Shown here: positions 16,318 to 62,306 of the stretch, in pieces
How the letters are laid out: every line of letters starts with the position of its first letter
Numbering within the stretch: the stretch's first letter is position 1
Origin: Nitrospirota bacterium
Lineage (GTDB): Bacteria; Nitrospirota; Thermodesulfovibrionia; Thermodesulfovibrionales; Dissulfurispiraceae
Reading direction: 5' to 3'
Assembly: GCA_963790025.1 (NCBI GenBank)
Contig: CAWBMP010000005.1
Location: 575,224 to 639,223, forward strand
DNA: 64,000 nt
Notes under the pieces: generated by a model
The model's input: only the letters and a program-made list of their open reading frames with translations
What the model was told of the DNA's origin: nothing
Databases searched by the model: none
Position numbers and translations under genes: made by a program

Positions 16318-16348
16318 AAGGGACTCAACGCGCCCTAATCTGGGGGGT

Positions 16349-16470
16349 AGTGGGGCGGTAACGTCCGGCTTACATATCGAGAAATGGCTGCCAGATAATC
16401 TTCAGTACATGCCGGTAATTGGAAATGGAAGACTATTTGATCCAGAGAAAAAAGAAACTGACCCGCTACC
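16349..16470 (+). repeat. Copy D of ~170-bp palindromic element (left arm missing)
   Basis: AGTGGGGCGGTAACG..CATATCGAGAAA..AATCTTCAGTACATGCC..AAGACTATTTGATCCAGAG..CTGACCCGCTACC aligns with the 34893-35061 and 48984-49155 copies. Confidence 0.88.
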
Positions 16471-24423: not shown

Positions 24424-24507
24424 CAAGTTAGATGCAGGTATAGGCAGAGGCATAGGTAAAGGAAAGGCCCTGCTGTCATTTGTCTTTACCTCTATCTTTA
24501 CCTTTGT
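24424..24507. repeat. Inverted hexamer repeat spacer (AGGYAW)n...(TTTACC)n
   Basis: aggtataggcagaggcataggtaaagg ... ctttacctctatctttacctttg. Confidence 0.7.
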
Positions 24508-34892: not shown

Positions 34893-35061
34893 GGTAGTTG
34901 GTCAGTTTGTTTTTGCTCTGGCTCAAATAGTCTTTCGTTTCCAATCAATGGCATGTACTGAAGATTGCTTTGGATCCCTTTCTCGATATGTGGGGCGGGC
35001 GTTACCGCCCCACTGCTGAGAACTCCGGTGATCCAGAGCAAAAACAAACTGACCAACTGCC
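34893..35061 (-). repeat. Copy B (complete) of ~170-bp palindromic element
   Basis: ~33-bp arms GGCAGTTGGTCAGTTTGTTTTTGCTCTGGATCA / TGAGCCAGAGCAAAAACAAACTGACCAACTACC. Confidence 0.92.
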
Positions 35062-36389: not shown

Positions 36390-36494
36390 CTCCCCATAAC
36401 AAGAGAACGGTATGACGCACCGTTCCCGTTTGTATTATAACAGAACTGCAGGCAGGTCTTCAGCCGGAAGGAAATTGCGGTATTGGGTCATTAG

Positions 36495-36605
36495 TACGTA
36501 CTGAAGATTACTTTGACAGCCCTTTCTTGATATGTGGTCAGTGCGTTACCCGCCCACTGTTGATAACCCAAATGATCCAGAGCAAAAACAAAATAACCCG
36601 CTACC
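36495..36605 (-). repeat. Copy C of ~170-bp palindromic element (right arm missing)
   Basis: Minus strand GGTAGCGGGTTATTTTGTTTTTGCTCTGGATCA..CAACAGTGGGCGGGTAACG..CACATATCAAGAAAGG..AATCTTCAGTAC. Confidence 0.88.
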
Positions 36606-37220: not shown

Positions 37221-37308
37221 GGAGAGGTGCCAGAGCGGTTGAATGGGGCGGTCTCGAAAACCGTTGTGGGATTATGTCTCACCCAGGGTTCGAATCCCTG
37301 CCTCTCCG
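37221..37308 (+). tRNA. tRNA-Ser (CGA)
   Basis: GGAGAGG/CCTCTCC acceptor stem, CT-CGA-AA loop, long variable arm, GGTTCGAATCC; CCA not encoded (followed by TCA). Confidence 0.97.
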
Positions 37309-48908: not shown

Positions 48909-48983
48909 CGCCGGACCTGTTCTATATAATGTTACACGGTTATGTTATCACTATGAAAGCATAAAATCAATCTTATATGAAAC

Positions 48984-49155
48984 GGCAGCGGGGCAGTTTG
49001 TTTTTGATCTGGATCACCGGGGTTCTCAACAGTGGGCGGGTAACCGCCCCGCCCACATATATAGCAAGAGTTGCCAAAGCAATCTTCAGTATTTGCCAGG
49101 GACTGGAAGCAAAAGACTATTTAAGCCAGAGCAAAAAACAAACTGCCCCGCTGCC
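48984..49155 (+). repeat. Copy A (complete) of ~170-bp palindromic element
   Basis: Arms GGCAGCGGGGCAGTTTGTTTTTGATCTGG / CCAGAGCAAAAAACAAACTGCCCCGCTGCC; 2 nt from the eno stop codon. Confidence 0.92.
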
Positions 49156-49157
49156 TA

Positions 49158-50450
49158 TTACACGCCCTTTAGTGCAGGCACATTATAAAAGGCGCTCAGT
49201 CCCTTAAATTGTGCCGTATTCCCCAGCGCTTCTTCAATCCCGAGCAGGCGGTTATATTTAGCGGTCCTTTCGGTCCTCGATAAAGAGCCTGTTTTGATAA
49301 AACCGGTATTGCAGGCAACGGCAAGGTCCGAAATGGTAGTGTCCTCTGTCTCTCCCGAACGGTGTGAGATTACAGCGGTGTACCGTGCCTTCTTTGCCAT
49401 TTCAATGGCATCGAGCGTTTCCGTGACAGAGCCGATCTGGTTCAGCTTTATCAGGATAGAGTTTGCGATCCCCTTAACGATGCCTTCTTTTAAAATTTTT
49501 GTATTGGTGACAAAAAGGTCATCGCCGACCAGCTGTATTTTGTCCCCGAGACTTTCTGTGAGGTGTTTCCAGCCGGCCCAATCGTTTTCAGCCATGCCGT
49601 CCTCGATAGAGAGAATAGGGTATTTTTTTACAATTCTCCTATAGTATGCGGTCAGTTCCTCTGGCGACATCTTTTTGCCTTCGAAGGTGTACTTGCCTTT
49701 ATCAAAAAATTCCGATGATGCTGCATCGATGGCCAGGAAGACATCTTTGCCCGGGGTATAGCCGCTCTCTTTTATTGCCTGCATGATTATTGAAAGGGCA
49801 TCTTCATTTGAATTAAGATTTGGAGCAAATCCGCCCTCGTCGCCTACAGCAGTATTGAGGCCTTTTTTCTTCAGGATGGATTTAAGGGAATGAAAGATCT
49901 CTACGCCGGCCCTCAATGCTGAAGCAAACGTATCAAAACCGGCAGGCATGATCATGAACTCCTGGATGTCTAAATTATTATCAGCGTGTACGCCGCCATT
50001 TACAATATTCATCATGGGAACGGGGAGCTCTTTCGCGTTGCATCCGCCAATATATTGATAGAGGGGCAATCCGAGCTCATTTGCTGAAGCACGGCATACG
50101 GCCATTGATACCCCCAGAATAGCATTGGCTCCGAGTTTGGCTTTATTCTGGGTCCCGTCGAGTTCTATCATCGTCATATCGACAAGGCCCTGGTCCATCG
50201 ATTCAAGACCGATCAGATGAGGCGCTATTTTTTCTTTTATGTTCCTTACCGCCTTGAGAACACCTTTGCCATCAAATCTCTTTTTATCGCCATCCCTCAG
50301 CTCCAGCGCCTCTCTCTGTCCGGTGGATGCGCCTGATGGCACCATTGCTCCGCCTGTTGCGCCGCAGTCCAGCAGTACCTCGACCGCCACAGTAGGGTTG
50401 CCTCTCGAATCCAGTATCTCTGCCGCATGTATATCCAGAATCTCACCCAT
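49158..50450 (-). CDS. eno: Enolase
   Basis: [43 protein letters not shown]. Confidence 0.99.
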
Positions 50451-61979: not shown

Positions 61980-62102
61980 AAAACCCTCTCAAGTGTAGAG
62001 CGTTCTGAGTACGTTTTTCCATACCCGGGGACCGGCAACAGCGCTCAACGAAGCGCAGTCTTCTTATCCTTTAGCGCTGAACGCACAACGCAGTACGCTA
62101 TT

Positions 62103-62200
62103 GGGGCCGGCTTGCTGCGGCACCCAGACAGAATGCTTACCGGTGCTTCCTTCCGGACCTGGCGGATTTCACACCTGCCTGCTGCGCAGGGCCAGCCCCC
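62103..62200 (-). ncRNA. ffs: SRP 4.5S RNA
   Basis: Long hairpin with GCCAGGTCCGGAAGGAAGCA core; conserved position upstream of dnaX. Confidence 0.95.
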
Positions 62201-62218: not shown

Positions 62219-62306
62219 TGGCGGAGAGGGAGGGAGTCGAACCCTCGATGAGTTACCCCATACACGATTTCCAGTCGTGCTCCTTCGGCCACTCGGACAC
62301 CTCTCC
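62219..62306 (-). tRNA. tRNA-Ser (GGA)
   Basis: GGAGAGG acceptor, CT-GGA-AA loop, long variable arm, encoded CCA. Confidence 0.97.

Follow-up and report, generated by a model that had tools for sequence, protein, structure and literature searches.

A probable hairpin-shaped MITE family of about 170 bp, with paired changes in its stems, in an uncultured Nitrospirota lineage

A REPIN inserts without duplicating its target and relies on a Y1 transposase whose gene is present once and bordered by REP sequences; repeated palindromes (REP/BIME) are the targets of IS1397 and IS621. Bacterial MITEs, such as the Correia/nemis elements of Neisseria, have been reviewed (PMC3184786, cited here and below for its passages on the elements named). 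Those passages also describe bcr1, which has 5-bp direct repeats, forms a cruciform with two stem-loops and is transcribed (PMC3184786). Here we analyze a palindromic element found in a 64,000-nucleotide stretch of a Nitrospirota genome (the window). Our reading, to which we assign a probability of roughly 80%, is that it represents a hairpin-shaped MITE family of ~170 bp that inserted with an 8-bp duplication, was moved in trans and kept its pairing through paired changes. The kind of element is already known; what is undescribed is the family itself, a MITE superfamily that is abundant in this uncultured lineage of Nitrospirota, and our literature search found no description of such an element in Nitrospirota.

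The element is 165-175 bp long and has no transposase gene. It is built of terminal arms of ~30 bp (27-34 bp) that are mutually complementary, an asymmetric core of ~110 bp and a 9-bp GC-rich inner hairpin. The four copies claimed for the window in the original prediction, two full and two partial, are real, and they are listed here with their associated features.

48984..49155, + strand: copy A, full length, 172 bp (180.3 bits, model positions 1-170)
48976..48983, no strand: left copy of the decayed 8-bp duplication at copy A, TATGAAAC
49156-49163: right copy of the decayed 8-bp duplication at copy A, TATTACAC
49032..49056, + strand: inner GC-rich hairpin of copy A, GTGGGCGGG / CCCGCCCAC
34893..35061, - strand: copy B, full length, 169 bp (196.7 bits)
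16346..16470, + strand: internally deleted copy (model positions 46-170), downstream of a NapH-like gene
36483..36605, - strand: 3'-truncated copy (model positions 1-123)
~24430..24500 (approximate), - strand: remnant of ~50 bp, with arm-like GTATAGGCAGAGGC, left by an old insertion between radA and thiD

The neighboring genes are those originally named, encoding enolase, FtsB/DivIC, DUF202 and a NapH-like Fer4_5 protein. Copy A lies between the enolase stop codon and ftsB and copy B between the DUF202 gene and a thioredoxin-like gene, both antisense to the flanking transcription. The only ORFs over copy A, of 122 and 76 aa, extend past the element into its flanks. The copy at 16346-16470 had been described as half-deleted; it retains the terminal GGTAGTGGG and has lost ~45 nt between two AGTGGG direct repeats, and its arm tip now directly adjoins the inner hairpin. 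In the copy at 36483-36605 the 3' third is gone. The location just after stop codons proposed from the window does not extend to copies in general: a rough ORF heuristic places 8 of the 13 full copies in the genome between divergent genes, and orientation relative to neighboring genes is mixed. Elsewhere in the window, Rfam at gathering thresholds identifies a small SRP RNA and two tRNA genes (62101-62198, - strand; 62222-62306, - strand; 37221-37308, + strand).

The genome that holds the window (G000; 3.45 Mb, 47% G+C, 5 contigs) contains 13 full copies by profile search, one of them with an insertion of ~38 bp, as well as 8 partial copies and several solo arms. With a covariance model based on 12 of these copies, we detected the element in 16 of 61 related genomes, among them all nine others of the genus, 14 of the family's 36 and one from another family. 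A 22-mer taken from the element is matched exactly in 27 stretches of a public species-genome collection; 26 are titled Nitrospirota, Nitrospirae or Dissulfurispiraceae and the exception is titled Chloroflexia. In the sister genome G008 the arm is matched 76 times, in 15 cases without a difference from the consensus. Neither the plasmid collection nor the phage collection gave a match. For comparisons across genomes we used 91 copies from 11 genomes, compiled from 80 stretches fetched from relatives and 12 loci of the window's genome (matches at E <= 1e-18). The main "GGTAG" type accounts for 68 of the 91.

In an Rfam scan of the whole window, no family reached its gathering threshold over the element. 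At permissive E-values the long hairpin matched mainly plant microRNA precursors, with 25-42 bits against thresholds of 65-180. The element thus matches no Rfam family, and its arms are unlike the ends of the insertion sequences examined, which agrees with the initial failure to match it to a named family. The genus seems rich in nested hairpin repeats. For instance, G008 has a related palindromic family of ~165 bp (L196, L201, L206) with arms ~AAGGAAGGCAGGAGAGGGGAGCACTTGTTTTTCGACGCG and the same inner-hairpin motif, which in three places is inserted at one point of a main-family arm, after GTTTTTGC. Another palindromic repeat, with arms GGAAGGGATCGGCAGGGGCAGGCTGTTTATCGGAGC, abuts fragments of the element (L204, L215). 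Such intergenic hairpins matter for annotation, because assemblies break at them, they resemble regulatory RNAs, and other insertion sequences are drawn to them.

The original prediction saw no evident target duplication. At the window copies the duplications have decayed: the flanks of copy A agree at 6 of 8 positions (TATGAAAC/TATTACAC) and those of copy B at 5 of 8 (TAATACTA/TCATACGT). Family-wide, 8-bp duplications are clear. In the same genome, the copy at C5:308804 has GCTCTTGC on both flanks, and the flanks of three further copies agree at 7 of 8 positions. Of the 68 main-type copies, 35 are bordered by 8-bp direct repeats that differ at no more than two positions (10 with none, 11 with one and 14 with two mismatches), compared with 0, 0 and 3 of 91 offset control flanks, respectively. 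The 21 best duplications give an A/T-rich, roughly palindromic target consensus, ~AAAWWTTT. On insertion, 8 bp of target are duplicated, with a preference for A/T-rich, roughly palindromic sites of this form. Just 3 of the 23 copies with divergent arms have flanks with two or fewer mismatches, and this after their arms had been extended.

Comparison with relatives, which the original prediction had proposed for the eno-ftsB site, showed the element to be absent in all eight of the relatives that have the locus; the spacer measures 25 bp in G008 vs 201 bp here. At the site of copy B, three relatives (G005, G007 and G002) are shorter by 176-179 bp, approximately the element plus 8 bp, in spacers that, as at copy A, are too diverged for base-exact reconstruction of the empty site. 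The family is therefore polymorphic between species, and it has been recently active in G008. Separately, the eno-ftsB spacer of G002, G003 and G004 (L176, L179, L180) carries a different insert of ~100 bp, with GGTTAAGG-like repeats in G002 and G003. We also observed a degenerate arm remnant in G002 (L241, C3:419552) that is orthologous to a composite site in G008 (L090, contig C2), where an insertion sequence sits within the element; the insertion of the element at that site is thus older than the split of G002 and G008.

Because the copies bear 8-bp duplications and the orthologous sites of copies A and B are empty, we consider the element a MITE, spread by cut-and-duplicate transposition, and not of the REPIN/RAYT type. 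The original prediction had suggested an HUH/RAYT enzyme, and an element of REPIN or IS200/IS605 type, transposed in single-stranded form by such a Y1 enzyme, would share the palindromic architecture with compensated changes, as reported for REPINs in the sections of PMC3116915 that concern them. The genome does have 11 Y1_Tnp matches, but a search for a RAYT gene flanked by the same arms found none among the 11. The nearest arm fragment is ~620 bp from a Y1 gene, with two putative tRNA-like sequences between them, and copies show no orientation bias relative to the replication strand as judged by GC skew (7 vs 12). Together with the duplications, these observations make the Y1 route highly improbable. 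The 11 matches are C5:249450, C2:671964, C2:673191, C4:1215216 and seven more; two of the 11 are 1.2 kb apart. Many lie in open frames of 300-330 aa, which is longer than usual for IS200-like transposases.

Five features were considered for the MITE reading. Four are present: small size without a transposase gene, terminal inverted repeats, a target duplication of fixed length, and presence or absence at orthologous sites. The fifth, an autonomous partner with matching ends, was not found in the searches described below. The label rests on the arms, the duplications, the polymorphism and the copy number, and these support the first description of the element as dispersed, non-coding, MITE-like and moved in trans. 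The mobilizing enzyme would probably be a DDE-type transposase. No autonomous element with matching arms was found across all the loci and families searched. Three solo-arm loci of the window's genome have no transposase by Pfam searches of their ORFs. In relatives, 40 solo arms were assessed by their inward sequence and by lists of ORFs, and proved to be truncated copies or to border on other repeats. At 20 metagenome loci with an exact 24-mer of the arm, facing arms are MITE-sized and the rest are single, with no pair spaced as in an insertion sequence. Family searches for IS6, IS1, IS256, ISL3 and IS1595 likewise found no element with these arms: IS6 (PF13610) occurs in 1 of 10 genomes of the genus, IS1 (PF03400) gave only weak matches, IS256 and ISL3 occur in some relatives but are not similar in their arms, and IS1595 is present in 0 of 5. 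Since no matching transposase was found in their genome, the copies there appear stranded.

Two other loci of this genome came up in the search. An IS1-like transposase gene (G000:C4:1488449-1489273; L221 1381-2205, - strand) is a single ORF of 274 aa with a weak PF03400 match, and the candidate ends of its element, CGGTCAAATATA / CGGTCAAGTATA, are unrelated to the MITE arms. A 1.9-kb repeat containing GGTAGTGGGTCA was rejected as an insertion sequence, being a duplicated gene with no sign of one. This 1934-bp repeat (G000:C4:734625-736558 and C4:761864-763797, 99.7% identical) has a 639-aa open frame that, by eye, we take to encode an acyl/acetyl-CoA synthetase-like protein.

In G008, an IS4-family element of 1386 bp is present in seven identical copies, five of which were inspected. 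It encodes a 387-aa protein with DDE_Tnp_1 (1.8e-29) and DUF4372 (6.7e-24) domains. Five of the seven copies occupy one fixed position in a MITE arm, three as seen in the sequence and two as inferred from the spacing between arm and ORF. The three seen directly stand between MITE arms.

G008 C1:552694-556854: stretch with a MITE-nested IS4-family copy (L188)
G008 C1:948230-952390: stretch with a MITE-nested IS4-family copy (L192)
G008 C2:550509-554669: stretch with a MITE-nested IS4-family copy (L194)

This arrangement raises the question of whether the MITE is a deletion derivative of the IS4-family element, which we find scarcely credible. The element has ends of its own, CAGACTTGTCC...GGACAGCAATG (13 of 18 positions inverted), that differ from the MITE ends, and it makes its own 9-bp duplications inside the MITE (GCTCTGTAT or ATATAGAGC). 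Two of the seven copies are not in a MITE at all and have duplications CCCTAACAC and ATATTTAGC. The same MITE position is occupied in either orientation; for instance, two aligned nested copies have identical cores with the MITE body on opposite sides. Finally, the window's genome has MITEs but no homologue of the IS4-family transposase (best tblastn E-value 1.2). We therefore rejected it as the parent on the basis of its ends, its 9-bp duplications and its copies outside MITEs. Two composite copies (MITE plus nested insertion sequence) have outer 8-bp duplications of their own and share an arm mismatch, which suggests that a MITE carrying the nested element moved as a unit; a moving MITE can take such a passenger with it. 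Other nested arrangements were also seen in the collected loci, namely an IS200-like element (L092 1920-2490; Y1_Tnp, 6.1e-39) within a MITE beside the IS4-family element, and an IS200-like transposase gene interrupted by the IS4-family element (L190).

Both strands of copy A are predicted to form a long hairpin, one at -79.7 kcal/mol (z = -6.7, 200 shuffles) and the opposite one at -83.7 kcal/mol (z = -7.8, 200 shuffles). The arm and inner-hairpin pairings first quoted are present in the sequence, and their covariation holds both among the 12 copies of the window's genome, where 8 of 47 pairs have changed on both sides, and in the 91-copy alignment, where two-sided changes occur at 36 of 47. 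In that alignment 95.2% of the cells form standard pairs vs 79.5% in shuffles, a value that none of 500 shuffles reached, although the alignment was fitted to the model's structure and so leans towards pairing. When partners are slid by 1-3 columns, 35-48% of the cells are paired. Pairing is 97.7% in the outer stem and 91.1% in the inner hairpin. The third small stem of the original prediction is weak, with 81% of its cells paired, and is lost in divergent subfamilies. Covariation of the hairpin is nonetheless real and strong. In the main subfamily each arm is ~8% off the consensus, yet pairing is lost at just 4.4% of arm positions; divergence of the unpaired middle is 21%. The arms of this subfamily contain 108 compensated cells in 29 distinct states, 13 of which are private to one copy, and 75 cells with a one-sided change.

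After insertion, then, one arm changes in concert with the other, as do the opposite sides of the inner hairpin, and pairing is kept. The paired changes may come from selection on a single-stranded hairpin, of RNA or DNA, or from extrusion of a hairpin in which mismatches are corrected with the opposite arm as template. The earlier claim that the fold is under selection stands in part: the fold is kept by compensated changes and selection is plausible, but it is not separated from a hairpin-templated homogenization at the DNA level.

In such a DNA-level process, extrusion of a hairpin or cruciform followed by mismatch repair or template switching would copy one arm from the other, and the fold itself would be unselected. 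We regard this as a tenable explanation that falls short of even odds. In several genomes, arm variants private to one copy appear in exact mirror form in both of its arms (e.g., G009:C22 and G002:C5:364677). At L149, L153 and L160 the flanks match perfectly as inverted complements for 8-10 bp, with two mismatches as direct repeats, and at G001:C196 a 5-nt inverted copy of the left flank lies between the right arm and a displaced GTATT duplication. Arms-only forms of 54-68 bp also exist, two in the window's genome and seven in G008. A formal test for a tendency of duplication mismatches to render the flanks palindromic gave a borderline outcome (6 of 32 copies vs a null mean of 3.3, P ~0.04), and the flank symmetry is partly explained by the preference for palindromic targets. 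Copying between arms also does not explain the conserved unpaired core in orthologs, described below, or the excess of inherited G.T over A.C. On the modelled strand of the main subfamily, one-sided G.T changes number 40 cells (17 states, 9 shared) and one-sided A.C changes 13 cells (11 states, 2 shared).

That inherited excess would fit a mobile element that is also a functional structured RNA, co-transcribed or with its own promoter, whose fold and ~110-nt core are under purifying selection. We consider this possible but rather doubtful. The inner hairpin offers some further indications. Its center is CT/AG in 26 copies, CA/TG in 6 and GC/GC in 5, a form with a tandem G.A pair occurs in ~21 of 70 parsed copies, and another variant ends in a GGAA loop; the last two are the variants that bear on an RNA. 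On the other hand, private G.T and A.C changes in the main subfamily are equal (8 vs 9), and the mixed orientation of the copies, the antisense placement of A and B and the frequent location between divergent genes also speak against it.

The subfamilies bear on the same question. In 23 of the 91 copies the arm sequence is quite different, although the arms are still complementary within each copy. These copies share with the rest the core motifs CACCTGGGTT, the inner hairpin, AATATTC-AGTATA and GGCACAGAAGGCTAATTG, and core motifs common to subfamilies with unrelated arms are a further point in favor of an RNA. Varied arms around a constant core run counter to what is usual, namely terminal repeats that are more conserved than the rest, and weigh against the MITE reading.

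One copy with divergent arms is orthologous in G006, G004 and G001, where it lies between thiD and radA and both flanks align. Its arm sequence is single-copy in each of the three genomes, and it is in sense orientation ~30 bp before radA. Among the three species the element is 88-92% identical, compared with 80-87% for the adjacent gene (900 bp), 57-70% for the adjacent 30-bp spacer and 73-80% for the 200 bp on the other side. In two arm pairs both partners have been replaced (T:A to C:G, A:T to G:C), and the copy of G004 carries a T.G intermediate. Conservation above that of the adjacent gene is not predicted for a purely selfish relic, at this one locus, and the sense orientation and the two compensated changes likewise speak for a structured RNA. 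Against it, this copy is reduced to the ~50-bp remnant in the window's own genome, and a single orthologous set was analyzed. A second candidate pair (G000:C3:99351 and G001:C196) was set aside; its insertion points are ~10 bp apart and its arms come from different subfamilies.

A broader proposal would make the ~110-nt core, held in a drifting but compensated stem, the functional unit of the family, either as a mobile structured RNA or as DNA recognized by its shape, with a function of its own and an enzyme that reads the fold instead of the terminal sequence. It would draw on the constancy of the core across subfamilies and on the one old single-copy insertion, in which the core is more tightly kept than the adjacent gene. 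We think this unlikely. Three things set the family apart: its core is conserved while the arms drift, one ortholog is strongly conserved, and no transposase was found. It brings together young copies in large numbers, old copies shared as orthologs and subfamilies that surround one core with differing arms, and it is a clean natural case for asking whether compensated changes in transposon hairpins reflect selection on the fold or self-templated repair of DNA.

The MITE that we propose resembles the bacterial MITEs in the review passages (PMC3184786) in being <200 bp and non-coding, with terminal inverted repeats, target duplications, many intergenic copies and a long predicted stem-loop. It differs from those covered there in its 8-bp duplication, in having no sequence relation to a named family, in that its parent insertion sequence was not found, and in that its outer arms vary between subfamilies while the core is conserved (PMC3184786). 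With REPINs, as presented in the relevant sections of PMC3116915, it shares a palindromic, hairpin-forming doublet, two-sided compensated changes and long persistence within a lineage; unlike REPINs, it has 8-bp duplications and no associated Y1 gene. The IS4-family passenger of G008, at one fixed MITE-arm position in five of seven copies, is reminiscent of IS1397 and IS621; this likeness concerns the passenger of the MITE, and some of the copies may reflect the composite moving as a unit. Compared with bcr1 of the Bacillus cereus group, the duplication here is 8 bp, the structure is one long outer stem plus an inner hairpin, and the family is known from DNA alone. Both are nonetheless mobile elements of similar size (~155-170 bp for bcr1), flanked by direct repeats, with compensated changes that keep a double-stranded structure (bcr1 as described in PMC3184786).
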